Notes: generated from the sequence alone by a model not told the origin. 64,000 nucleotides of DNA from an uncultured Candidatus Binatia bacterium (GCA_965213675.1 OZ243916.1:2880001-2944000), one strand, 5' to 3'; positions 49,064-63,111 are shown, counted from the stretch's first letter. Made by a program: numbers and translations.

Positions 49064-50497
49064 ATGCAACCGGTAACCGACATGCGGAGCTACCTCGAGC
49101 GACTGGACGCCATGGGCGAGATCAAGCGCATCGAGGGGGCGGACCTCGACACGGACGTGGGGGCGCTCACCGAGCACATGGGGGACATCGAGTCCCAGGC
49201 GCTGCTGTTCGACGGCTTCGCGGGGTTTCCCAAGGGCTTTCGTATCGTCTCCAACCTGTTCCGCACCTGTCCGCGCTCGGCGGTGGCCATGGGCCTGCCC
49301 ACGGATGTCCGGGGTGTGGACTTCCTCCACGCGTGGCGCAAGCGCAGCCTGGAGTTCCAGCCCGTGCCGTATGAGCAGGTGGAAGGCGGGCCGGTGTTCG
49401 ACAACCAGATGGACGAGGACGAGGTGGACCTGACCCGGTTCCCCACGCCCATGTGGCACGACCTCGACGGCGGGCGCTACATCGGCACCGGGTGCGGGAT
49501 CATCACCAAGGACCCGGAGTCCGGCGGCATCAACATCGGCACCTACCGGGTGATGATTCAGGAGAAGAACAAGGTCTCGGTAAAGATGAACAAGGGCAAG
49601 CACGGGCGCCTGGCCATGGAGCGCGCCCACGCCCGCGGCGAAGCCCTGCCCGTGGCCATCACCCTGGGGCAGGAGCCCAGCGTGATGCTGTCTTCGCAAA
49701 TGCCGCTGCCGCCGTCGGTGAACGAGTACGAGTTCGCCGGCTGGATGCAGGGCAGCCCCATCCCGGTGGTGCGCGGCGCCGTCACCGGCCTGCCCATCCC
49801 GGCCAACGGCGAAGTGGTGCTGGAGGGCGAGATCCCGCCGCTGCCGCCGGAGGAGTTGCCCAAGGAGGGCCCCTTCGGCGAGTGGCCAGGCTACTACACC
49901 GAGGCCACCGAAGGGGACGTGCCGCTCATGACCGTGAAGCGGGTGTACTACCGGAACGACCCCGTCATCCTGGGCGCTCCGCCGGTGCGGCCGCCCAACA
50001 GCTACCTGCCCATCCCCCTGGGCGCCATCACGCTGTGGGAGCAGTTGGAGAAGGCCGGCATCCCGGACGTCAAGGGGGTCTGGGGCTTCGTCTACGGCGG
50101 CCAGCCCGGTCCGTTCACGGTCATCTCCATCAAGCAGCGCTACACCGGCCACGCCAAGCAGGCGCTGCTGGTGGCGGCCGGCGCCCGCGCCGGCGCCTAC
50201 GGCGGCAAGATGGTGGTGGTGGTGGACGACGACGTGGACATCACCAACCCGGGGGAGGTCATCTGGGCCATGTCCACCCGCTGCGACCCGCGCGAGGGCA
50301 TCGACATCGTGAAGAACGTGTGGGCCTCGGTGTGCGAGCCGGTCATCTCCCCCATGGACCGGGACACCAGGGGCTACGTCACCGACCGCGTGCTCATCGA
50401 CGCCTGCCGCCCATACCAGTGGATCGACCGCTTCCCGCCGGTGAATGCGTTCGAGCCGACGTACAAGGAGCAGATCGCCAAGAAGTGGGGGGTATGA
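49064..50497 (+). CDS. UbiD family prFMN-dependent decarboxylase
   Basis: DGGRYIGT, NIGTYR, EGPFGEWPGYY, VVDDDVD, WAMSTRCDP. Confidence 0.93.
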   Translation: MQPVTDMRSYLERLDAMGEIKRIEGADLDTDVGALTEHMGDIESQALLFDGFAGFPKGFRIVSNLFRTCPRSAVAMGLPTDVRGVDFLHAWRKRSLEFQPVPYEQVEGGPVFDNQMDEDEVDLTRFPTPMWHDLDGGRYIGTGCGIITKDPESGGINIGTYRVMIQEKNKVSVKMNKGKHGRLAMERAHARGEALPVAITLGQEPSVMLSSQMPLPPSVNEYEFAGWMQGSPIPVVRGAVTGLPIPANGEVVLEGEIPPLPPEELPKEGPFGEWPGYYTEATEGDVPLMTVKRVYYRNDPVILGAPPVRPPNSYLPIPLGAITLWEQLEKAGIPDVKGVWGFVYGGQPGPFTVISIKQRYTGHAKQALLVAAGARAGAYGGKMVVVVDDDVDITNPGEVIWAMSTRCDPREGIDIVKNVWASVCEPVISPMDRDTRGYVTDRVLIDACRPYQWIDRFPPVNAFEPTYKEQIAKKWGV

Positions 50498-50510
50498 AGG
50501 AGCGGCGCGC

Positions 50511-51134
50511 ATGAAGGCGGTTCTCTGGAGAACGCTGACGACGGCGGCGTTGGCGCTGGCGTTCGTCATGGCGCCGGCCACGGAGGCGCCCGCCCACAAG
50601 TCCGTCCTCAAGGTGGAATTTGCGGAGCGACGCGAGTTCAACCTCCTCATCGACGACTTCGGCCTCACCGACCAGAACGGCAGGCGCGTGCGGTTCGGGC
50701 AGTTCCGGGGCAAACCGGTGGTGGTCAACTTCATGTACACGTCGTGCCCGGACGTGTGCCCGCTGCTCACCGCGAGCCTCAAGATCCTGCGCGACCACAT
50801 GGAGCCGGCGGAGTCCCGGGACATCCATTTCCTGTCCATCACCACCGACCCCGAGGTGGATACCCCCGAGGTACTCAAGGCGTACAGCAAGCGTCACAAA
50901 GCGGATGCGCCCAACTGGTCGTGGCTCACGGGGAACGAGCGGGCGCTGGCGCCGGTGTGGCAGGGCTTCGGTGTGAGTGTGCAGCGCATCGCCAAGGGAC
51001 TCATCGAGCACACCACGCTGACGGTGGTGGCGGACGCCAAAGGCTATATGCGCTTCGCCTACTTCGGCTCCGCGCCGGACCCGGACGTGATGTTGCAGGA
51101 TCTGCGGGCGCTCGCCAAGGAACCGGCCACCTGA
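50511..51134 (+). CDS. SCO family protein
   Basis: Signal peptide, FMYTSCPDVCP, ITTDPEVDTP, WLTG, conserved His. Confidence 0.9.
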   Translation: MKAVLWRTLTTAALALAFVMAPATEAPAHKSVLKVEFAERREFNLLIDDFGLTDQNGRRVRFGQFRGKPVVVNFMYTSCPDVCPLLTASLKILRDHMEPAESRDIHFLSITTDPEVDTPEVLKAYSKRHKADAPNWSWLTGNERALAPVWQGFGVSVQRIAKGLIEHTTLTVVADAKGYMRFAYFGSAPDPDVMLQDLRALAKEPAT

Positions 51135-51204
51135 CGACTCGTTCAATTCCCTGCGACTCCCGGGACAGATCCGGCGCAAAGGACGCGGCTCATGGGGTAT
51201 GGCG

Positions 51205-51338
51205 CCCTTCGACCTGGCTCAGGACACGCCCTCCGACTTCGCGCCGCTGACGCGGCGCTACGCTCAGGACGAACGGAGGTGCGGTTGCCAGTCGCGGTGA
51301 GCCAGGTCAAAGGACCTTTCCCGAGCGCAGTCGAAGGG
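51205..51338. repeat. Palindromic repeat family C cluster
   Basis: CCCTTCGAC...GCTCAGGAC, GCTACGCTCAGGACGAACGG, GAGCGCAGTCGAAGGG. Confidence 0.7.
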
Positions 51339-51359
51339 CTGCCGGGGTTGGATTGAACC

Positions 51360-53510
51360 GTGGGATCGCTGCTGAGCGCCATCGTATGGGAGACCGTGGG
51401 GGTCTTTTACGAGGCCTCGGTGTACCTCCTCATCGGGTTTTTCGTCGCCGGACTCTTCCACGCATACCTGCCGGCGAATCTCATTGCCCGCTACCTGGGC
51501 CGCAACGACGTGCGCTCGGTGGGGCTGGCGGCGCTGTTCGGGGCGCCCATTCCCTTGTGCTCTTGCGGCGTCCTGCCGGCGGCGTCCTCGCTGCAAAGGC
51601 AGGGAGCCGGCCGGGCGCCACTGGTATCGTTTCTGATCTCGACTCCCGAGACCGGGGTGGACTCGGTGGCCCTGACCTACGGGCTCATGGGTCCGGTGAT
51701 GGCCGTGGTGCGTCCGGTGGTGGCGGTGGTGACGGCGCTGGTGGCTGGCATCGCCGCCATCGGCGTGCGTGAGGACCAGACGGAGGGTCGCCCCTCCACC
51801 GGCGCGGCCGCGGTTTGCGCCGATGCGTGTGCGCCAGGGGCCGCCGGCAAGGGCGCATGCGATGACACGCGCGCCCCGGCCGGTGGCCAGGATCCGTGCG
51901 CCGAGACGGACGCGGCGGCTCCTTCACCGAGGCGCCGTTTCCTTCATTCGCTGGAATACGGCTTCACCTCGGTGCTGGACGACATCGCGTTGTCGCTGGT
52001 CGCCGGCATGCTGCTGACCGGGATTCTCGCGGGCCTTCTGCCCGACAACTTCTTCGACGAGGTGCTCGGCTGGGGCTCGGGGATCATGCCCATGCTGGCC
52101 ATGATCGTGCTCGGGCTGCCGTTGTACCTCTGCGCCAGCGCGTCCACCCCGGTGGCCGCCGCGCTCATGGTCAAGGGGCTCTCTCCGGGAGCGGCGCTCG
52201 TGTTCCTGCTGGTGGGGCCGGCCACCAACCTTGCCACCATGACCGTGGTGGGGCAGCTCCTGGGGCGCCGTCTTCTCGGCGTCTACATCGGCGCCATCAT
52301 CCTCGTGAGCCTGCTGGCCGGACTCCTGGTGGACGCGACCCTGGCGGATTCCATCCAGGTGGCGGGCTTCGGCGATCTCGGGCAGGAACTCGACGCGGTC
52401 TTCGCGCTGAAGGCCCTGTCGGCCGTGGGCCTGGTGCTGCTGTTGCTGCGGAGTTTCGCACGCAAGGGCTTTCGCACGGTCTGGCGCGACGCTTCGGATC
52501 AGCTTCGCCAGACCGGCCAGGCCGTCAAGGCCCTCCGTCCCGGCCTCTTGTTGCGCGGCCCGGTGCTCGCGGCGGCCGCGGCCATCGCGGCGGTGGCGTC
52601 GGTTCCGGCGTTCACCCTGGTGGTCGAGCCCGGCCAGCGCGGCATCATCCAACGCTTCGGCCGAGTGGCCGCGGCGGACCTCGAGCCCGGCCTGTACTTC
52701 CATCTGCCGGCACCCTTCGGCCGGGGGACCGCGGTGGACGTGGCGCTGGTCCGACAGGTCTCCGTGGGCTTTCGGGGCAGCGTCAACGGGCGGCGGGAGG
52801 TTGTGGACGCGCAGGCCTTCTACCTCACCGCGGACGCCAACGTCATCGACATCCGCGCGGTGGTGCAGTACCGCGTGCGCGATCCGGCGGTGTACGCCCT
52901 GGGCGTCGAGGAGACCCCCGCGGTGGTCCTGGGGCTGGCCCGGCGTGAGCTGGTGAGCCTCTTGAGCCGCAAGCCCATCGACCGGGTCTATACGGTGGAC
53001 CGGCGCGGCACCGAGAGCGAACTGCGGGACCGGTTGGCCCGGCGCCTCGCCTCCCTGGGCATCGGCAGCGAAGTTCTGGACGTGCGGCTCCTGGACGTGC
53101 ACGCGCCCGGCCGGGTCCACGACGCCTTTCGCGACGTGGCCAGCGCACTGGAGGACCGCCAGCGCGACATCCACGTAGCCACCGGGGCGGCGACCCAGTC
53201 CACCACCGCGGCCACGGGCGAGGCGGAGCGCATCATGCAACGCGCCGAGGGCCGCGCCGTGCGCGAGATGCGCCGGGCCGAGGGCCGCGCCGCCGCGTTT
53301 CGCGATACGGCGGCGGTGCACCGGGCGAGTCCGTCGGTCACCGAAGCCCGCCTCTATCTGGAAACCCTCGAGCGGTCGCTGGAGCTGCCGCGCAAGTACA
53401 TCTACATGCCCGAGGCGGACGGCGGAGGCGACGTGGATATCTGGGTCGGCGCGCCCTCCGCGGACCTCCTGAACCTGGGCGCGCCCGTGCCCCGGAGCGG
53501 GCAGAGATAG
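51360..53510 (+). CDS. SO_0444/DUF318-type metal permease fused to a C-terminal SPFH (HflK-like) domain
   Basis: PIPLCSCGVLP, FLISTPETGVDS, PLYLCASASTP, LLVGPATN; then VVEPGQRGIIQRFG, LTADAN, AFRDVASA, RLYLETLE. Confidence 0.88.
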   Translation: MGSLLSAIVWETVGVFYEASVYLLIGFFVAGLFHAYLPANLIARYLGRNDVRSVGLAALFGAPIPLCSCGVLPAASSLQRQGAGRAPLVSFLISTPETGVDSVALTYGLMGPVMAVVRPVVAVVTALVAGIAAIGVREDQTEGRPSTGAAAVCADACAPGAAGKGACDDTRAPAGGQDPCAETDAAAPSPRRRFLHSLEYGFTSVLDDIALSLVAGMLLTGILAGLLPDNFFDEVLGWGSGIMPMLAMIVLGLPLYLCASASTPVAAALMVKGLSPGAALVFLLVGPATNLATMTVVGQLLGRRLLGVYIGAIILVSLLAGLLVDATLADSIQVAGFGDLGQELDAVFALKALSAVGLVLLLLRSFARKGFRTVWRDASDQLRQTGQAVKALRPGLLLRGPVLAAAAAIAAVASVPAFTLVVEPGQRGIIQRFGRVAAADLEPGLYFHLPAPFGRGTAVDVALVRQVSVGFRGSVNGRREVVDAQAFYLTADANVIDIRAVVQYRVRDPAVYALGVEETPAVVLGLARRELVSLLSRKPIDRVYTVDRRGTESELRDRLARRLASLGIGSEVLDVRLLDVHAPGRVHDAFRDVASALEDRQRDIHVATGAATQSTTAATGEAERIMQRAEGRAVREMRRAEGRAAAFRDTAAVHRASPSVTEARLYLETLERSLELPRKYIYMPEADGGGDVDIWVGAPSADLLNLGAPVPRSGQR

Positions 53511-53520
53511 TGGAATCACC

Positions 53521-54474
53521 ATGACCAAACCCGTCGTCGCGGTCCTCGTTCTGGCGCTGCTCCTCTTCGCCGCCGCCACTTCGTTCGTGGTGGTGGATGA
53601 GAAGAGCCACGCGGTCATCACCCAGTTCGGCAAGCCGGTGTCGGTGCTGAGCGACGCCGGCCTCTACTTCAAGCTGCCGGTGCCGTTCCAGCGGGCCAAC
53701 CTGCTGGACAAGCGCATCCTCATCACCAACACGCGGGAGACGGAACTGCTCACCGCGGACAAGAAGAACGTCCTGGTCTCCACCTATATCTCCTGGAAGA
53801 TCGCCGATCCGGTGCGCTACCTGGCGGCGCTGCGCCGCCGGGACTTCGCGGAGAACCGGCTTGCCGCGCTGGTGCAGTCCGAGTTGGGCAGCGCGCTGGG
53901 CGGCCGGCCCTTCAGCACGATTCTGGGAATTTCCGGCAACGACGCCAGCTTGGCCGAGTTGGAGGCATCGGTGGAGCGGGCCGTGGCCCGGGTGGCGCGG
54001 AAGGACCTGGGCCTCGAGGTGGTGAGCCTGGGGGTGACGCGTCTCATCTTCCCGCAACAGAACCTGGACAGCGTGTTCGCGCGCATGCGCGCGGAGCGCG
54101 CGCGCATCGCCCGGGGCTTTCGCTCGGAGGGGCGCGCCGAGGCGCAGAAGATTGCCGCCCGTGCCGAGAAGGAACGCGCGCGCATCATCGCCGAGGCCGA
54201 GGCCACCGCCACCAGGCTGCGCGGCCGCGGCGAGGCCGAGGCGGCGCGCGTCTACGCCGAGGCCTACGAGGGTCACGCCGGGTTCTATCGTTTTCTGCGC
54301 ACGCTGGAAGCCTACAAGAAGGTGCTGAACGAGAAGACCACACTGGTCCTGCCCGCGGATTCACCGTTCCTGGAAATCCTGACCTCCAGGATCCCTGGCA
54401 CGCCGGAGCGGGAGCCGTCGGAGCGGGAGTCCGGCGTTGAGCCGCCGCCCACGCGGGGAGAGGTGCCCCGGTGA
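53521..54474 (+). CDS. HflC-like SPFH protein
   Basis: VITQFGKPV, GLYFKLP, LLTADKKN, RMRAERAR, FYRFLRTLEAY. Confidence 0.88.
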   Translation: MTKPVVAVLVLALLLFAAATSFVVVDEKSHAVITQFGKPVSVLSDAGLYFKLPVPFQRANLLDKRILITNTRETELLTADKKNVLVSTYISWKIADPVRYLAALRRRDFAENRLAALVQSELGSALGGRPFSTILGISGNDASLAELEASVERAVARVARKDLGLEVVSLGVTRLIFPQQNLDSVFARMRAERARIARGFRSEGRAEAQKIAARAEKERARIIAEAEATATRLRGRGEAEAARVYAEAYEGHAGFYRFLRTLEAYKKVLNEKTTLVLPADSPFLEILTSRIPGTPEREPSERESGVEPPPTRGEVPR

Positions 54475-55382
54475 CGGGACGGGGGCGACGATTCCCGGTT
54501 TTCCTTGGCTGTGCCGCCGTGCTCGCTGGCTGGCTTGCCTTGGGAATTTACAGCGTCGAATCCGACGAGAGCGCGGTGGCCTACTTCCTCGGCAAGGCCG
54601 TGGGCCGCGACGTGCTGCCGGGCATCCACTGGAACCCGCCTTGGCCGCTGGGCCGGGTGGTGGTGGCTCGGACGGCTACGAACTTTCTCATGCCGGTGGA
54701 GCACGAGGCGCCGGCGGACAGCGTGACCGGCGCGTCCGAGTCCCTGTGGCTTCTGGGGGACACCAACGTCGTCGTCGGCCGGGTGGGCATCCAGTACAGC
54801 ATCCGCAGCCTGACGCGCTTCGAGGTGTCGCACGAGGATCCGCGGGAACTGTTGCGCCGGGCCGGGCGGCGGATCGTGACACGGTTTCTCGCCAGCGAGA
54901 GCGTGGACGCCGCCCTCACCACGCGCCGGAACGATCTGCTGGACGCGGTGCAGCGGCAAGTGCAGGCGATACTCGATCATCACGGATCGGGCATCGAAAT
55001 CCAGTCCGTGAACGTCGAGGCGCTGGCCCCTCCGGAGCAGGGCGGCGTGCGGCAGGCCTTCCAGGAGGTGCAGAGCGCGCTGGCGGACAAGGAACGCGTG
55101 GTGGACGAGGCCCGCGCCGACCGCGCCCAGACCCTCGCCGAAGCAGAGGGGGAGGCCGAGCACCGCGTGACCCAGGCCGAGGCCGCGCGCCACCGGCGGG
55201 TGGAGATCGCCAAGGGCGAAGGGGAACGTTTCCGTCGCTTGGCCCGGGAGCACCGCAAGACCCCGCGACTCACCGAGGAACGGCTCTACCTGGAAACCAT
55301 CGAGGAGATCCTGCCGCGCATGGACACCTACGTGGTCCAGTCGGCCCCCGGCGGCAAGGTGAATCTGCGCGTGGTCAGGTGA
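54471..55382 (+). CDS. HflK-like SPFH protein
   Basis: GIYSVESDE, PGIHWNPPWP, AFQEVQSA, AKGEGERF, ERLYLETIEEIL. Confidence 0.85.
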   Translation: MTGRGRRFPVFLGCAAVLAGWLALGIYSVESDESAVAYFLGKAVGRDVLPGIHWNPPWPLGRVVVARTATNFLMPVEHEAPADSVTGASESLWLLGDTNVVVGRVGIQYSIRSLTRFEVSHEDPRELLRRAGRRIVTRFLASESVDAALTTRRNDLLDAVQRQVQAILDHHGSGIEIQSVNVEALAPPEQGGVRQAFQEVQSALADKERVVDEARADRAQTLAEAEGEAEHRVTQAEAARHRRVEIAKGEGERFRRLAREHRKTPRLTEERLYLETIEEILPRMDTYVVQSAPGGKVNLRVVR

Positions 55383-55448
55383 AACTGGTGTCGTGTCCGG
55401 CAGAGGCAATTTACGCCTTATTGATATTAGTTGATCAACTACGCTCGT

Positions 55449-55481
55449 TTGACAGGCGAACATTTTGAGAGTAGTTTCTCA
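55449..55481 (+). promoter_or_regulatory. Sigma70 promoter with overlapping Fur/Zur-like palindrome
   Basis: TTGACA(55449)-N17-TAGTTT(55472); TGAGAGTAGTTTCTCA 55466-55481. Confidence 0.65.
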
Positions 55482-55518
55482 TTAATCCATCATCCATGCG
55501 GGCCGAGGAGGAATCGAC

Positions 55519-56652
55519 ATGAAGACAGTGGGACGGATTCTGTTTGTAATGGTCGTGGGTCTTTTGACAGGGGCCCATCCGGCGTTCGCCAGCGAGAAGG
55601 GCGTGAGTGTGGTGGCCAGTATCCTTCCTGTCGCCTATCTGGCGCAGGAGTTGGGCGGGGAGCGCGTGCGCGTGGACCTGCTGGTGCCACCGGGGGCAAG
55701 TCCGCACACGTTCGAGCCGGTGCCGAGCGACATGATCAAGCTGCGACGCGCCCGGTTGTTCTTGCGGGTCGGCGCCAATCTGGACGGATGGACCGACAGG
55801 CTCCGGGGAGCGGCTTCCGATGGACTGGAGACGTTGACCCTGATGACGTTGCCCGGCATCAAGCCTCTTGAGGGGGGTCACGATCATGACCACGGCCACG
55901 GTCATGGCGAGAAGAAAGCGGAAGCACACGACGACCATGGGCACGGCGAGAGGCAGGCGAAGAAACACGACGACCATGGGCACGACCACGGCGAGAAGAA
56001 GGCGGAGGCGCATGACGACCATGGGCACGGTCATGACGAGAAGAAAGCGGAAGCGCATGACGACCACGGCCACGGCGACAAACATGCGGAGAAGCACCAC
56101 GGAGAAGCGGAGGCGGCGGGTGGCGAAGGGTTGGACCCGCACTTCTGGCTGGATCCGATCCGGGTTCGGGATGCGGTCGTCCCGGTCATTGTCGAGCATC
56201 TGGTGGAGGCGGATCCGGCCGGCAAGGAGTACTACGAGCAACGCGGCAAGGACTTCCGCCAACGCCTGACGGCGCTGGATGTCAAAGTCCGGGGGGAGCT
56301 GGCCAAGGCCAAATCCAGGAAGTTCGTGGCGTTCCACAGTGCCTGGGCCTACTTTTCCGAGCGATACGATCTCGAAGAGGTGGCGGTGGTGCAGGAGTTC
56401 GCCGGCGAAGAACCAACGCCGCGGGAGTTGGCCGCGCTGGTGAAGGGGGCGCGGGAGGCCGGGATCCGCAGTATCCTGGTGGAGCCGCAACTCAGCCCGC
56501 GGGTGGCGCAGACCATCGCCAGCGAGTTTGGCGGCGGGACGGCGCTGGTGGATCCCCTGGGGGACTCCGGCGATCCGGCGCGAGCGAGCTACGAAGGGTT
56601 GATGCTGTTCAACGCGCGAGCGTTCGCGCAGGCTCTGGGGGGGCAGAATTGA
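55519..56652 (+). CDS. znuA: Zinc ABC transporter substrate-binding protein with long His-rich loop
   Basis: SPHTFEP, His-rich repeats, DPHFWLDP, FHSAW, DPLG. Confidence 0.88.
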   Translation: MKTVGRILFVMVVGLLTGAHPAFASEKGVSVVASILPVAYLAQELGGERVRVDLLVPPGASPHTFEPVPSDMIKLRRARLFLRVGANLDGWTDRLRGAASDGLETLTLMTLPGIKPLEGGHDHDHGHGHGEKKAEAHDDHGHGERQAKKHDDHGHDHGEKKAEAHDDHGHGHDEKKAEAHDDHGHGDKHAEKHHGEAEAAGGEGLDPHFWLDPIRVRDAVVPVIVEHLVEADPAGKEYYEQRGKDFRQRLTALDVKVRGELAKAKSRKFVAFHSAWAYFSERYDLEEVAVVQEFAGEEPTPRELAALVKGAREAGIRSILVEPQLSPRVAQTIASEFGGGTALVDPLGDSGDPARASYEGLMLFNARAFAQALGGQN

Positions 56653-57443
56653 CAGAACTCAACCACGGAGTCGTGGTGGGGCTGAGTGGCGTGTCGGTGG
56701 AGTTGGGTGGCCGAAGCGTCCTGCACGACATCAACTTCAACGTGCACGAGGGCGGTTTCGTGGGCATCGTGGGTCCCAACGGAGCGGGCAAGACCACGCT
56801 GCTGCGCACGATTCTCGGTCTCGTGCCAGTGGTGAGCGGCAGAGTGGAAGTGTTCGGGCGTCCCCCGGGCCGCAACGCCTCCCAAGCCATCGGCTACGTG
56901 CCGCAGCGCCAGAGCATCGCCAGCAACTTCCCGGCCACGGTGGGGGACATGGTGATGATGGGACGGTTGCGGCATTTGGGGCTCATGCGCTTCCCCGGCC
57001 GAAAGGACTGGCAGCGGGTGGACGACAGCCTGCTCCTCGTGGGCATGCTGGACCGCAGAGACCGTGCCGTGGGGCGCCTGTCCGGAGGCGAGCAGCGCCG
57101 GGTCATGCTGGCCCAGGCGCTGTGCGCCAGCACCCGCCTGCTGGTGCTCGACGAGCCCACGGTGGGGCTCGACCTTCCCGCCGAGCACGAGTTCTACGCG
57201 CTGCTCCGAAAGCTCATCCGCGATCTGAGCCTGACCATCGTGGCGGTATCCCATGACCTGGTGGCCTTGGCCGGCGAGACCGACGAGCTGATCTGCATCA
57301 ACCACCGCATGCACATCCACGGCAACGCCGAGGACGTGATTCACAGCCACGCCATTCGCGAGGCCTATTGCTGCGAGTTCGACTTCCTGGCCGGCGAGTT
57401 GGCCCATCACGAGGGCCACGACCACACGGCGCCGGTTTCCTGA
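56649..57443 (+). CDS. znuC: Zinc ABC transporter ATP-binding protein
   Basis: GPNGAGKTT, LSGGEQRR, LDEPT, Cys/His-rich C-terminus. Confidence 0.88.
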   Translation: MTELNHGVVVGLSGVSVELGGRSVLHDINFNVHEGGFVGIVGPNGAGKTTLLRTILGLVPVVSGRVEVFGRPPGRNASQAIGYVPQRQSIASNFPATVGDMVMMGRLRHLGLMRFPGRKDWQRVDDSLLLVGMLDRRDRAVGRLSGGEQRRVMLAQALCASTRLLVLDEPTVGLDLPAEHEFYALLRKLIRDLSLTIVAVSHDLVALAGETDELICINHRMHIHGNAEDVIHSHAIREAYCCEFDFLAGELAHHEGHDHTAPVS

Positions 57444-57487
57444 ACACCCCGCGGTCACGCGTCGCACGTCATCCGACGGCCTCCCCC

Positions 57488-58288
57488 ATGTTCGAATTCG
57501 AATTCATGCAACGCGCCTTGGCGGCGGCGATCCTCGTGGGCCTGCTGTGCGGTATTCTGGGCTTCTTCGTGGTGCTCCGGCGTTTGGCGTTCATCGGCGT
57601 GGGCATTTCCCATTCCGCCATCGGCGGGGTGGCCATCGGCATCCTGGCAAGTTGGAACCCGCTGCTTACCGGCGCTGTCTTTGCGGTTGCCGTGGCCTTG
57701 GGCATCGCTCTGGTGAGCCAGACGGATCACATCGGCGAGGACACGGTCATCGGCGTCTTCTTCTCCGGCTCCATGGCGTTGGGGATCGTGCTCTTCAGCA
57801 TGAAGAGCGGCTACCAGCAGGATCTCTTCAGCTATCTGTTCGGCAACGTATTGGCGATCTCCACCGAGGAGCTGGTGGCGCTGGCCGCGGTGAGCGCGGT
57901 GATCATGGCGGTCGTCGTGCTCACGTTCAAGGAACATCTGCTGATCTCCTTTGACGAGGAAGTGGCCTCCGCCTACGGCCACAAGGTGGTGGTCCTCAAC
58001 GTGCTGCTGCTGGTGATGCTGGCCCTGACCGTGGTCATCGGGGTGCGCTTGGTGGGACTGTTGCTGATCCAGGCCCTCCTGGTGGTGCCCGCGGCCGTGG
58101 CCGCGCTGTGGGCAACCAACTTCCGCGGGCAGGTGCTTCTGGCGGCGTCCATCGGATCGCTGTCGGGCGTCACCGGCCTCGTGCTGGCCTATCAACTGGA
58201 CATCGCCGCGGGCGGCGCCATCGTGCTGGTGGCGGTGTCGCTTTTCTTCGTTGCCCTGCTCGCCCGCCTCCTGGCCGGGCGTGTATAG
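57488..58288 (+). CDS. znuB: Zinc ABC transporter permease
   Basis: FMQRAL, VVLRRLAFIGVGISH, YLFGNVL, SFDEE. Confidence 0.88.
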   Translation: MFEFEFMQRALAAAILVGLLCGILGFFVVLRRLAFIGVGISHSAIGGVAIGILASWNPLLTGAVFAVAVALGIALVSQTDHIGEDTVIGVFFSGSMALGIVLFSMKSGYQQDLFSYLFGNVLAISTEELVALAAVSAVIMAVVVLTFKEHLLISFDEEVASAYGHKVVVLNVLLLVMLALTVVIGVRLVGLLLIQALLVVPAAVAALWATNFRGQVLLAASIGSLSGVTGLVLAYQLDIAAGGAIVLVAVSLFFVALLARLLAGRV

Positions 58289-58654: not shown

Positions 58655-61600
58655 CTACCACCGCGCGGTCGCTTCGAGCCCCATGGTGTGCTCCGGCTCC
58701 GTCCAGTCGCTCTCCCGGCGCGTCCCCTTCAGCCCGAAGGAGACATCGGGCGCGTTGGCGCGGGTCGCCGGGGTGAGACGCCACCCCACGCTCCACCCCG
58801 AAGCCGGTCTCGGCATCGCCGCCGTCCTGGCGCATGCCCAGCTCCAGCTTGGGCGTCACATGGCTGCCCCGCGCCAGCGCGGCCTTCCAGCTTCCGGTGG
58901 CTCCGAGGTCACCGCCAGGGCGGGACCCGATCCTTCCGCCGGGGGCGCGATCACGTCGCCGCGCAGGCCAGCCGCCGCCATGGTCCAGGAGATGTCGGAG
59001 GTGAGGGAACCGCCTACCTCCGGCTCGAGCGTCACGTCGCCGGCGCCATAGCCCACCGCGCCCCAGAGCTTCAGCCGCTCCGAGACCCGGAGCGCGGCAT
59101 AGGGAACCGCCGCCGTCAGCGACGCCTCCACGTCGCCATCGCCCTCCCGCACGGCGCCGCTGCACACGACCCTCCGCGCTTCGGCATCCGGAGGTTGAGG
59201 GCAGCCTACGACATCCGTGCCGTTGCCTGCCCCGGACCCCGCCCCGCTGTCGGTATAGCCGCCATCCCCGCTGCTCCGCATCAGGGTCAGTCCGGCCAGC
59301 CAGTTGCCGCGCCCATAGTCGGCTCCCAGCATGGCCGTGGTGGCCTCGCCGTCGAGCGAGAACGTCCCCTCGCGGCCGTCGAAGCTCGACTGCGCTGCCC
59401 GGCCCCAGAAGGCCACGCTGCCGCCCATGCCGTCCTTCTCCCCGGTCGCCGTGAAACTGCTGCCCAGCAAGGCTTCCCGGGCCGTCATCGAGTAGGACTG
59501 CGCGCCGCTACTGCCGAAAGCGAAGCCATGAGTGTCATGGCCCAATGCCGATCCCGCACCGCCGGCGCCGAAACGGCCGCGGGCGACATCGGTCTGCACC
59601 AGCCGGCCAGTGCCGGACAGGCTGCCAGGGGCAGCATTTCTGCTCGCCGCGCCAACCGATCCGTCGGGGCCTGCCTGCGAGCCGGAGGAGCGGGGATCGA
59701 AGTTCAGCGCCTGTCCGGCGATGGTGCCCTGCACCCCGGCGTCGCGCGACGCCGCGATGCGCCCGGCTATGCCGTCCAGTGCCTGTTCCGCCGTCGTGCG
59801 ACCGAAGCGCGCCAGCCATGCCGCCGGCATCGGGTCCGAGTTGGTGATGGTGCCCACGGCAACCCCGTCCGCAATCGACACCGACACCCCGGGCGGACCG
59901 TTCACGGACGCGTCGAACAGCACCATCTCGAAGGTCTCCGGACCCTCGTCATGGCTGTCGTTGTAGAGGCGGACGTGGATCAGCGTTTCCGTCTGCCCCG
60001 GCCTGAACCGGGCCCGCAGCCGCCAGGACCGCTTCCACGCCAGGTAGTCCTGGCCCGCCACGGCCGACACCGGCGTTGAATCCCGCGTCGCGTAGTAGAC
60101 GACGACCGGCCAGTCCACCGGCTCGCTCAACGTCACCTTGAAATTCCCCGTTATTCCGTTCTCCTTGAGCGTGGCATCGGCAATCGAGATCGTTGGACCC
60201 GAGGACGCCGCATCGTTGTCGGACACCGCCACCGTGGCCGCGTTGTCCGGCGATGCCGCCACGGTGTAGCCGGTGCCGGTATCGACAGTTGCCGTGATCG
60301 AGCCGTCCGGCTCGTCCGTGCCGTCATCCACCGTGGTGACCTCGAAGGTGGCGCTGCCCGTGACCGGGATGGTGACCGTCCGCGATCCGGTCGCGCCCGA
60401 GGCGGCGAAGTCGCCGCTCTGGCCGACGGTCAGGGTCACGTCGAGCGGTGCGGCTGGCACCGGGCTGGCCGTGACCGTGAAGGAAGCCGAGGCACCTTCC
60501 GCCACTCCGCTGCCGGCGGCGATGCGTACCACCGGCTCGTCATTGTCGCGCACCGCCACCGCGGCGCTGCCCTTGCCCGTGGCCACGGTATAGCCCGTGC
60601 CCGTGCCGAGGGTGACGCTCACCGAGCCGTCGGCCTCGTCCGCCGCATCGTCCAGCGTGGCCACGGAGAGGTCGACGCTGGCCTCTCCCGCCGCCAGTGT
60701 CACCGTCCGGTGACCCGCGCCGGGGGCGTCCAGGTACTCGCCGCTCTGGGCGACGGTGTAGGTGACCGTGAGGTCGGTGGCCGGAGCCGGGTTGGCGGTG
60801 AGGGTGAAGGTGGCCTGGCCGCCCTCGTCCACGGCAGAGCCCGCCGAGAGGCTCAGTTCGGGGGTGGTGGGCGTCGCCGGTTGGACCTCCGCCGGTTCCG
60901 GCTGTTTCTGCGGTGCCGCCGCCAGGCATTGGAGCGCCGGCGCCACCGGCGCCCAGCGCTGCAGGCCGCGGTCCGCCTGCGCCTGCGCCTCGGCAACGGT
61001 CATCGGGTGGTTGCTGTAGCTGTTCTCCTCCCCGAAGGCGGCCAGCACGCGGCTCCAGCGCTCGACATGGCCCGGTGACGTCCGCCAGGTCTCGCCCGCA
61101 GCCTTCTGGGCGTCGGCCAGCAGGGCGTCGGAGACGCAGGCGGGTGTCTCAGCCTGCGCCGCCTGTGCGTCTTGTTGCGGCGAGCCCTGTCCGCCGCCGA
61201 CGGTGATGGTGACCCAGTCGAAGGCACGGCCGAGACCTTTGTAGCTCAGGATGCCGACCACTACTGGATTTGCGGCCAGCCTGAAGTGCAGGACCGTGGG
61301 CGCGGCCGGGGCGGTGAAGGTGGGTGCGGCGGCGGAGCTGCCGCCAGGCAGTACGTCATCGCCGATGATTGTGTTCGAAGCCGGGCCGTCCACCTGCCAC
61401 CAGTGAAGGCGGACATTGTCGCCCCAGGGGCCGCCGGCACCAGCGGTACCCGACAGGGTGACCTGCGCCCCGGCGGCCACCGTCTGGTCGGGGCCGGCAT
61501 CAGGGGCCGCCGGCCTGAACGGTACGCCGGGGTTTTCGGGCAGCCACAGGGCGTGCAGACTCCTGGTCCTGCGAAAGATATTCTCCGGCAGCGCCTGCAG

Positions 61601-63111
61601 CTGGTTCCTTCGCATCCACAGTGTATTCAATTTCGGATTGTGGTCGAAGATGCCGGCCGGCAGCGTGGTCAGGTCGAGATCTTCCATGTCCAGCGTCTGC
61701 AGCCTAGCAAGATTGTCGAAGATGCCCGCCGGCAGCGATGCGATGCTGTTGTCATGCAGGTCCAGATACGCGACGGAGGTGAGGTCGTCGAAGATGCCCG
61801 CCGGCAGTGTCGTAAACTGGTTTCTGTCCAGATCCAGACGAGTCAGCGCCGTGAGGCCGTCGAAATCGCCAGCCTGCAGGCTGCTCAAGTTCCGCAGCTC
61901 CAGATTCAGTCTGCCGCCGATGCCCGCAAGGTGTTGGGGGGTCACGTCGCGGCAGTTGCTGACGCCGCCGATCCTGCCGACAATGGCTTGGCGCACCGTG
62001 GGCGTGCGCCCGCAGATGCCGGCCTCGCCATCCAATACCCTCGCCACGATGTCAAAGGCGGGAATTGAATCATCCTTGCGGCCAGTGGCGTAACGCCGGG
62101 TCCTCTGGTCGTAGAACGGTCCGTTGAAGGAGTGCCTTATCGTGAAATGCTCGTCGTTATCGTCATCGTCATGAGGCACCTTGACAATAATCGTCTTGGT
62201 CTTGCCCCCGGGTTGCAGCCAGTCGGCCCGGGTCCATGTTACGCTCGTCGGATTGAAAGTCACGTCGCCGTCGCGTGTTTCCGGGCCGAAATTGTGATGC
62301 GGCCACTGGTAATCGACGCTGGGCGTAACCGTGAGGGTTTCCCCTGGCTTCGGGGGCTGGTGCAGGGTCAGGTCGTATGACGTCTTCCCGCCTTCATCGA
62401 CATTGAGACAGCCGTCGTACTTGTAGGGCAACTCGGAATTTCGATCCGGCCATGGGTGACCTGGATGTCATGGGTGATCTCGGCATCGAATACGCCATCA
62501 AGATCCCTGTCGATCTCCACGATCAGGGTGTCGGGCCTGAGGAAATTTTCAAAGACCAGTGTTCCGGAAGTATTTCGATCGCTGCGGGTTCTTCCGACGA
62601 TCCCCACGGTGTAGCCCGTGTTCCACATGTCACGCTCGATTTCCATGTCGTATGTCGTTCGGCTTGCGGATGTCATTCTGGGCTGTGACCAGTCTACACG
62701 AGCGAATCTGATCGGCTCGTTGCCGCGCAGGAACCGATACGAGCGCTTCGTCTGCGTTGTGATTCGCACATGGACTAGATCCGTAGGCTGCTTGTTAAGC
62801 TTGACGGTAAAATTGCGATCCCGGTCCAAGCTGAGCATCATGGGCTCGGTTGCGGTATCCAGGTCGATCACGGGTAGCACCTGCTGCGCCTGAGCGTGTT
62901 CGCTTTCAGCGAACCCGAGCCCCAGCGCCAGGCAAAGCGCCACCGGCACCAGGCCGCGCCGCAAACGGCGGGCAGACGCGAGGGGCTTGCCGCGTTTATC
63001 AACCCCTGCGCTGCGACCATGTGCGTCGCGGCCGCCGTGTGCGCCCAAGAGCGCTGCGAATGCCGCTCCCATCGCTCGGGCGGCTGCCCCAACTTCGCCC
63101 GCCATGTTCAT
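58655..63111 (-). pseudogene. Large secreted LRR/Calx-beta protein with autotransporter-like barrel, broken into several frames
   Basis: SD+ATG 63111 with signal peptide; frame change near 62430; LRRs (LPAGIFD), Calx-beta repeats (DDAADEADGSV), AWLARFGRT; frame breaks near 58905 and 58790; terminal EHTMGLEATARW-TAG. Confidence 0.75.

Follow-up and report, generated by a model that had tools for sequence, protein, structure and literature searches.

What does a heavy-metal permease gain from being joined, in one polypeptide, to a subunit of the kind that builds the HflK/HflC cage, and what do the two further SPFH genes that directly follow it contribute? This question is raised by a locus in a 64,000-nucleotide (nt) stretch of DNA from an uncultured Candidatus Binatia bacterium (GCA_965213675.1 OZ243916.1:2880001-2944000; C1:2,880,001-2,944,000 of the 4.53-Mb source genome), hereafter called the window. 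There, a fusion gene, F (51360-53510, plus strand), is followed by the genes of an HflC-type subunit, C' (53521-54474, plus strand), and of a free HflK-type subunit, K' (54471-55382, plus strand). HflK/C encloses FtsH in a large membrane cage, with long coiled coils and C-terminal strands forming the wall and the lid. To our knowledge, the effect of SPFH rings (HflK/C, stomatin, prohibitin, flotillin, erlin) on the proteins that they enclose is still open despite many recent cryo-electron microscopy structures. The triad of F, C' and K' is widespread and unstudied, and could show what SPFH scaffolds do to the proteins they hold: as the client is welded to the scaffold and accompanied by two dedicated subunits, client, tether and subunit set are known beforehand, and the role of the ring is testable directly by metal-transport read-outs and structures. 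We report that the triad (51360-55382) is a self-contained SPFH unit, and we consider it probable that it builds an HflK/C-like ring tethering a metal transporter, reasoning from homologues as to the assembly, the metal and the direction of transport.

A metal permease continues into a complete HflK-type subunit

Domains were assigned by applying Pfam and NCBIfam profile cut-offs to the translations of open reading frames. F starts with GTG and encodes 716 amino acids (aa). Pfam recognizes ArsP_1 at residues 16-324 (152.5 bits) and Band_7 at residues 421-609 (65.3 bits). The protein passes the NCBIfam model of the SO_0444 Cu/Zn efflux family (NF033936, 354.5 bits for a cut-off of 300) over residues 14-364, which correspond to 51399-52451 (plus strand), and comes just below the cut-off of the hflK model TIGR01933 over residues 421-679 (146.8 bits for a cut-off of 159.4). 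In an alignment of 26 fusions, the CSC motif located in a membrane helix (C67-S68-C69) is at least 90% conserved; other conserved features of the permease are STPETG (94-99), an invariant C258 and GPATN (286-290). In the model, broken helices and hairpins make up the permease as an inverted repeat, and these four elements are found at the breaks and tips. The central loop is variable (alignment columns 136-240) and His-rich in most other clades. In F it contains C153, C157, C167 and C180 (51816-51899, plus strand, from the translation and the alignment) and residues 139-186 are disordered in the AF2 model (pLDDT <50); it is predicted to be a cytoplasmic metal-binding loop.

The junction between the two parts (52392-52613, plus strand) comprises, in the AF2 model, the transmembrane helix TM9 (345-369), a basic amphipathic helix (371-391) and an HflK-type anchor, TM10 (400-418), so that only some 30 residues tether the permease to the SPFH anchor. 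Junction residues K351, A355, R368 and Q381 are invariant across the 26 aligned fusions. The SPFH part begins around residue 419 (nt ~52614); the HflK-type domain, coiled coil and C-terminal strands extend over 52620-53396 (plus strand; Band_7, TIGR01933 and Foldseek), and the modelled coiled-coil helix that follows the SPFH domain (584-656) is about 70 residues long. The long coiled-coil helix and C-terminal strands are retained in F, C' and K' alike, which score 65.3, 75.3 and 39.8 bits on Band_7 (gathering threshold 23.6). When the model of F was compared with known structures by Foldseek, the best matches were HflK chains (7vhq_E, E 4e-13, then 9cz2, 9paw and 7wi3), with weaker matches of the SPFH part to stomatin, prohibitin, erlin, QmcA and flotillin. 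All the matches listed were SPFH proteins, no permease being among them, and no solved relative of the permease domain was found by sequence at E<=1. Judged by the distribution of charges, the loop and amphipathic helix would face the cytoplasm and the SPFH part the periplasm, as in HflK.

In F, a thiol-lined heavy-metal permease of the SO_0444 type (Cu/Zn class) runs on into a complete HflK-type subunit. The first-pass annotation of this DNA had already read the 716-aa frame in this way, as a Cys-motif permease with a four-Cys loop near 51815-51900 and an HflK-like SPFH part from ~52600, and the Pfam and NCBIfam matches, the CSC motif and the positions given above bear out each of these points. 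A role of F in Cu/Zn tolerance by efflux is predicted from family membership: Shewanella SO_0444 is reported to be needed under ZnSO4 or CuCl2 stress and was proposed to be a Cu/Zn efflux protein (PMC3219624). The SO_0444 protein of Shewanella oneidensis, in the ArsP/SaoE group, shares the CSC motif and the family model with the F permease but stands alone, with ~350 aa. Such fusions are labelled by NCBI just as 'SO_0444 family Cu/Zn efflux transporter'.

The fusion is conserved in several phyla

The first-pass annotation had proposed a search for the domain architecture and for conserved neighbourhoods, and had regarded a lost stop codon unique to this assembly, along with SPFH genes unlinked to metal transporters elsewhere, as fatal to its reading. 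Relatives of F at E<=1e-3 numbered 1331; the best 120 of them (47-88% identity, 638-780 aa) all contained both PF03773 and PF01145. A further search, with a fusion of 33% identity as query, returned 1977 clusters at E<=1e-50, with both domains in 119 of the best 120. By name, the sources of fusions include Binatia, Deltaproteobacteria, Myxococcota, Eiseniibacteriota, Limnocylindrales and Burkholderiales. Because relatives carry both domains and the junction residues are invariant, the fusion is genuine and conserved, and no lost stop is involved. Within the class its distribution is patchy (22/201 sampled genomes, 15/88 genera and 6/11 other members of the genus) and it was found in none of the 15 genomes from the other two families of the order; this pattern fits an accessory, mobile module.

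A separate observation concerns SO_0444 genes that are not fused. Those of other members of the phylum hold one in-frame TGA (L017, L020, L026, L029, L032 and L037), which fits the selenocysteine (USC) variants known for this family; the CSC motif and the selenocysteine variants have been described in a preprint (bioRxiv 10.1101/2022.07.06.499078).

F is accompanied by two dedicated SPFH subunits

In the window, C' (317 aa), which has a single membrane helix at its N-terminus, starts 11 bases past the stop codon of F, and the start of K' (303 aa) overlaps the stop of C' by 4 bases. To determine how general this arrangement is, fusion loci were taken from species-representative genomes, metagenome contigs and further genome stretches, and partners were identified by tblastn and Pfam; in high-GC loci, genes were picked by a GC3 filter and Pfam. 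The fusion is directly followed by an HflC-like gene, with an HflK-like gene next, in 24/24 loci where 2 kb or more of sequence is available on the downstream side (the window, L008, L010, L012, L013, L014, L045, L046, L047, L052, L060, L061, L073, L077, L080, L100, L116, L117, L125 with two triads, L126, L127, L128 and L139), and none of these 24 lacked the partners. Six more loci stop inside or just past the HflC-like gene (L009, L011, L048, L050, L051 and L123) and two within the fusion (L113 and L122). The fusions of the triad loci are 33-88% identical and come from several phyla; the loci are partly non-independent, eight being at least 77% identical to that of the window. Some genomes of the genus have, at a distance of 8-12 kb from the first triad, a second, divergent one (F2 of 840 aa, C2 and K2; L125:2969-7682 and two other genomes); it was not found in the genome of the window itself. 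One soil clade has four SPFH genes at the locus, as a further HflC-like gene is located, with a formamidase-family gene, just 5' of the fusion (L080:532-1410, also L113, L122, L123 and L110).

The partners were then compared with canonical HflK and HflC, as the first-pass annotation had allowed that the SPFH genes might be the canonical hflKC. C' passes the HflC model TIGR01932 (190.6 bits for a cut-off of 134.4) and K' is below the cut-off of the HflK model TIGR01933 (151.7 bits for 159.4). The genome of the window has seven Band_7 genes, among which an adjacent canonical pair at C1:3.764 Mb (hflK, 286.6 bits; hflC, 246.7 bits). The sole ftsH, which is the only Peptidase_M41 match in the genome, is at C1:2,220,417 and hflX at C1:2,272,138; the window is over 600 kb away from either. 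No NfeD family was found among the Pfam matches of the neighbours of the triad. The tight linkage of the HflC-like and HflK-like genes to the fusion, with znuACB beyond them, and the lack of ftsH or hflX nearby had been noted from the sequence and are confirmed by these spacings, scores and positions, whilst the canonical pair turned out to be located elsewhere.

Quick trees were built with IQ-TREE, with SH-aLRT support only. In a tree of 75 rows, a branch with 99% support separates HflC-type from HflK-type proteins; C' belongs to the HflC superclade, and F and K' belong to that of HflK. C' forms a clade apart from canonical HflC (support 97 in the 75-row tree and 83 in a tree including the CDF triads described below). 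The K' clade (99 and 94 in the two trees) is sister to canonical HflK (92%), and the fused SPFH parts also group together (86 and 97); the F and K' clades are apart from the 8-9 canonical HflK sequences. Sub-branching is congruent across the F, C' and K' clades, as expected for co-inherited partners. Given its separate clade, C' is an HflC-type paralogue, and these comparisons indicate that C' and K' are dedicated partners of F, distinct from canonical hflKC.

Other metal transporters are fused to the same kind of SPFH part

A search restricted to the junction (residues 320-480) against 1.84 billion representatives gave 245 matches at E<=1e-3, 13 at E<=1e-10 and none at E<=1e-30; such a search is weak as a family count, and useful for showing fusions to other cargo. 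Pfam was run on 60 proteins picked from 150 listed matches. Full ArsP_1+Band_7 proteins made up 34 of the 60 and were found among 38 picked for a length of 676-814 aa. The others were shorter ArsP_1+Band_7 pieces (4/60), ArsP_1 alone (1/60), unrelated proteins (3/60) and fusions of Band_7 to other N-terminal parts: CDF (Cation_efflux) in 5/60, P-type ATPase in 5/60, one of them complete (P0257, 989 aa), TauE/SafE in 1/60 (P0246) and, in 7/60, an N-terminus of ~145-320 aa lacking a Pfam match (P0290, P0342, P0332, P0359, P0363, P0372 and P0383). NCBIfam identified P0257 as a heavy-metal P1B ATPase (568.6 bits) with an HflK-type part (189.3 bits), and the CDF fusion P0343 as a CDF membrane part with an HflK-type part (212.4 bits).

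A scan of 401 genomes sampled from the phylum found full-length matches to P0343 in at least 7 genomes, plus three partial ones, and no full-length match to the P1B-ATPase+HflK fusion P0257. The CDF+Band_7 gene is followed by HflC-like and HflK-like genes in 7/7 loci that were fetched (L146-L152; e.g. L149:2343-5901); genes for FeoB, a DtxR-type repressor or NicO/DUF1007 proteins are found in their flanks. The three subunits of this CDF triad each form a clade (100%, 98% and 100%) that is distinct from the SO_0444 triad clades and from canonical HflK/C; the deep branching is unresolved. The same layout with an unrelated CDF transporter, together with the P1B ATPase fusions, speaks for a selected solution in metal homeostasis and against an accident.

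Two further loci considered as candidate fusions, L137 and L138, were rejected, as their proteins are of the canonical HflK/HflC type. The 742-aa frame at L138:2664-4889 has EamA transporter domains ahead of an HflK of canonical type that shares 43% identity with the hflK of the window's genome, and a canonical-type HflC comes next; the frame is either one more cargo fusion or a pair of genes lacking an intervening stop.

Relation to known SPFH systems

E. coli HflK/HflC-FtsH (7vhq, 7wi3 and 9cz2) resembles the triad in its N-terminal anchor, SPFH domain, coiled coil and C-terminal strands. It has two subunit types whereas the triad has three, one HflK-type subunit of the triad bears a nine-helix metal permease at its N-terminus, and the triad has no link to ftsH, hflX or hfq. 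Other SPFH proteins are reported to regulate channels and transporters (PMC12407830). Stomatin cages with aquaporin-1 or urea transporter-B and the QmcA-YbbJ system, as they appear from PDB titles (9zd2 and 8z5g) and from that report (PMC12407830), combine an SPFH oligomer with a membrane partner, as proposed here, but their clients are non-covalent and their rings homo-oligomeric, whereas the client of the triad is covalent and there are three subunit types.

The first-pass annotation knew of no characterised system with this architecture. Full-text literature searches found no description of the fusion itself; a partly characterised, unfused counterpart does exist, the PA2435-PA2439 cluster of Pseudomonas aeruginosa. 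Upon zinc depletion, PA2435 (the P-type ATPase HmtA) is up 5.6-fold (PMC4542158, Table 2) and PA2437, PA2438 and PA2439, of the HflC/HflK families, are up 14.4-, 10.6- and 9.0-fold (PMC4542158), with a predicted Zur site at PA2434 (PMC4542158); reported proteomics agrees on the zinc-starvation response of the cluster (PMC11761036). PA2437-PA2439 correspond to PaFlo5-7, described as patchily distributed (PMC13086221). As in the triad, a single operon holds three HflC/HflK-family genes next to a heavy-metal transporter, and there is a link to zinc and a patchy, transfer-like spread, as far as these reports describe it. The transporter of P. aeruginosa is a separate gene of another family, and the likeness is taken from the published description. 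On this footing PA2435-PA2439 is the closest precedent of the triad, and fusions of the P0257 type suggest a bridge between the fused triads and the P. aeruginosa cluster.

Assembly of the triad and alternative readings

The SPFH part of F (residues 395-716) was modelled in complex with C'. The ipSAE was 0.69, the best of 3 controls giving 0.00; this mark is reached by 116/157 solved complexes and 2/215 mismatched pairs, benchmark counts that are only rough as custom alignments were used. At least 92% of contacts are common to the runs, the partner pLDDT is at least 79, and the contacts follow two long helices lying side by side as in HflK/HflC. As HflK/C structures have already been solved, the pass shows likeness and not binding.

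In the assembly that we think probable, F, C' and K' would build an alternating ring or cage like that of HflK/HflC at the periplasmic side of the inner membrane. C' would alternate with K-type positions, each taken by F or by K', and the free K' would thereby dilute the cargo-bearing F and set the number of transporter domains per ring. The cytoplasmic tether of ~30 residues would hold the permease at or inside the ring-fenced patch of membrane, and the ring would confine, cluster or gate metal transport in zinc or heavy-metal homeostasis. The first-pass annotation had proposed a dedicated three-subunit SPFH cage: the dedicated partners are upheld by the separate clades and by the 24/24 loci, and a closed cage enclosing the permease is a proposal that we make by analogy.

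Several points weigh against this assembly. The triad locus is known from sequence and models; ring or cage formation and stoichiometry are proposed from homology to HflK/C. The full-length AF2 model of F is moderate (pLDDT 70.2, pTM 0.45), and the topology of F is deduced from charge distribution. The multimer modelling that had been suggested for the SPFH chains placed the SPFH part of F against C' in the HflK/HflC manner, a result that may reflect the likeness to solved HflK/C. The trees are quick ones with deep nodes unresolved, and the divergent, long-branched copy F2_L125 falls outside the F clade. Free SO_0444 genes had an SPFH gene nearby in 3/90 loci (median length 4 kb); coupling to SPFH is a property of the fused SO_0444 subfamily only. 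No classical metal transporter or regulator was found in the examined flanks of the triads L052, L060, L061, L073 and L117. The commonest neighbours of the triad (Znu, ZIP and TonB-dependent receptor) serve uptake whereas SO_0444 is a proposed exporter, which makes any direction of transport or metal assigned to F tentative. Finally, the report on PaFlo5-7 describes no marked laboratory phenotype upon deletion of the three-gene operon (PMC13086221).

A wider version of this proposal, which we put forward tentatively and hold to be rather doubtful as a whole, is that of modular SPFH metal-transport nanodomains. FtsH-independent three-subunit rings would carry an interchangeable transporter on their HflK-type subunit (SO_0444, CDF, P1B ATPase or TauE) and fence off a patch of membrane under a periplasmic dome, K' would set the cargo number, and HmtA with PaFlo5-7 would be the same machine in unfused form. 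If so, metal ions would be released or captured in a confined space. For the three-SPFH operon of P. aeruginosa, which is induced by zinc starvation and unexplained, the triad itself offers a working hypothesis.

An alternative that we judge unlikely is that the triad acts as an adaptor of FtsH, bringing the fused permease to the sole FtsH or shielding it, so that the level of the permease would be set by regulated proteolysis. F, C' and K' are all inside the HflK/HflC superclades, their fold and modelled interface are HflK/C-like, and the single FtsH of the genome would be open to recruitment, canonical HflK/C being known to enclose FtsH; on the other hand ftsH is ~710 kb off, a canonical hflKC is already present in the genome, and both F and K' are below the HflK equivalog cut-off. 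We give still less credit to an SPFH module that, in a stomatin-like manner, gates the permease or senses lipids in cis, alone or as a small oligomer with C' and K', with no closed ring. The shortness of the tether (~30 residues) would suit such a module, as would the reported regulation of channels and transporters by SPFH proteins elsewhere (PMC12407830; PDB titles 9zd2 and 9oh9), but F, C' and K' have all retained the helix and strands that form wall and lid in HflK/C, and the co-inheritance of two extra subunits in 24/24 loci is hard to explain without a hetero-oligomer. That the fusion is an artefact of a lost stop, or that the organism's own hflKC lies near transporters by chance, could draw on an estimated 8% contamination of the genome bin and on the NCBI name mentioning only the transporter family, but is refuted by fusions with a conserved junction in hundreds of independent clusters from several phyla, by the canonical pair elsewhere in the genome and by the triad in 24/24 loci, and we regard it as practically eliminated.

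The znuACB genes and the metal neighbourhood of triads

The genes at 49064-58288 form a same-strand run, from a UbiD-type gene through ZnuB. Downstream of K' are genes for a ZnuA-family substrate-binding protein (55519-56652, plus strand; PF01297, 246.9 bits), a ZnuC-type ABC ATPase (56649-57443, plus strand; PF00005, 103 bits, and NCBIfam) and a ZnuB-type ABC-3 permease (57368-58288, plus strand; PF00950, 235.7 bits), the true start of ZnuB being likely near 57488 from the starts of relatives and the Pfam match. All three are below the equivalog cut-offs (ZnuA, 154.3 versus 268 bits; ZnuC, 138.6 versus 306; ZnuB, 118 versus 284), and the ZnuA gene product is below the cut-off of the NCBIfam AztC model too. 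ZnuA has an unusually long His/Asp/Glu-rich loop at residues ~121-194 (~75 residues; 55879-56100), made of repeated HDDHGHG-EKKAEA units; zinc specificity is predicted from this His-rich loop.

In an alignment of 8 Binatia loci, the AT-rich intergenic region of 136 bases 5' of znuA (55383-55518) keeps a TTGAC element and, adjacent to it, the palindrome TGAGAATAGATTCTCA, the form of the window being TGAGAGTAGTTTCTCA (55466-55481). Across the 4.53-Mb genome, the pattern TGAGAN6TCTCA occurs only here. The shape of this putative element recalls, as we take it, Fur/Zur operators, and it is likely an operator of this type; znuACB probably has a metal-responsive promoter of its own. The palindrome was found neither 5' of F, a region that is poorly conserved among relatives, nor elsewhere in the genome, which gives no evidence that the triad shares the regulation of znuA. 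Two Fur-family genes are located outside the window, at C1:2,811,873 and C1:2,850,555. The presence of znuACB 3' of the triad is confined to the clade of the window (close Binatia loci, L046, L047 and L127). The earlier claim of one operon including ZnuACB was thus too strong: with a conserved promoter-like element and palindrome of its own, and linkage in one clade only, a single operon with the triad is not established.

Other triads have other metal genes around them. A ZIP transporter gene is directly downstream of the triad in L077 and directly upstream in L128, which has a second copy. L047 has a TonB-dependent receptor with ExbB/ExbD/TonB near the triad; L126, a CusB-type adaptor and an RND pump; L100, a P-type ATPase and a CsoR-type repressor; L080, an outer-membrane efflux protein; and L139, a MacB-type ABC system. 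Free SO_0444 genes were also seen beside Znu-type ABC genes in two metagenome loci (L055 and L103), so that the link between this permease and Znu recurs without SPFH parts.

Upstream of F, the run begins with the UbiD-type gene (49064-50497, plus strand), followed by a gene for an SCO1/SenC-type protein with a thioredoxin fold, copper chaperone-like (50445-51134, plus strand; Pfam SCO1-SenC, 93.5 bits), whose real start is probably later than 50445. This gene is located directly 5' of the fusion, a position kept by synteny in close Binatia relatives (L008-L014, L045 and L125); Pfam scans of neighbours did not find it beside distant fusions. Beyond ZnuB, a convergent gene (58856-62431, minus strand) encodes a product of 1191 aa with leucine-rich repeats, Calx-beta and LapA-type domains, a large surface or adhesin-like protein with no relation to the triad. 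No RNA run was listed as carrying the stretch, which is present as DNA in four runs of one sample.

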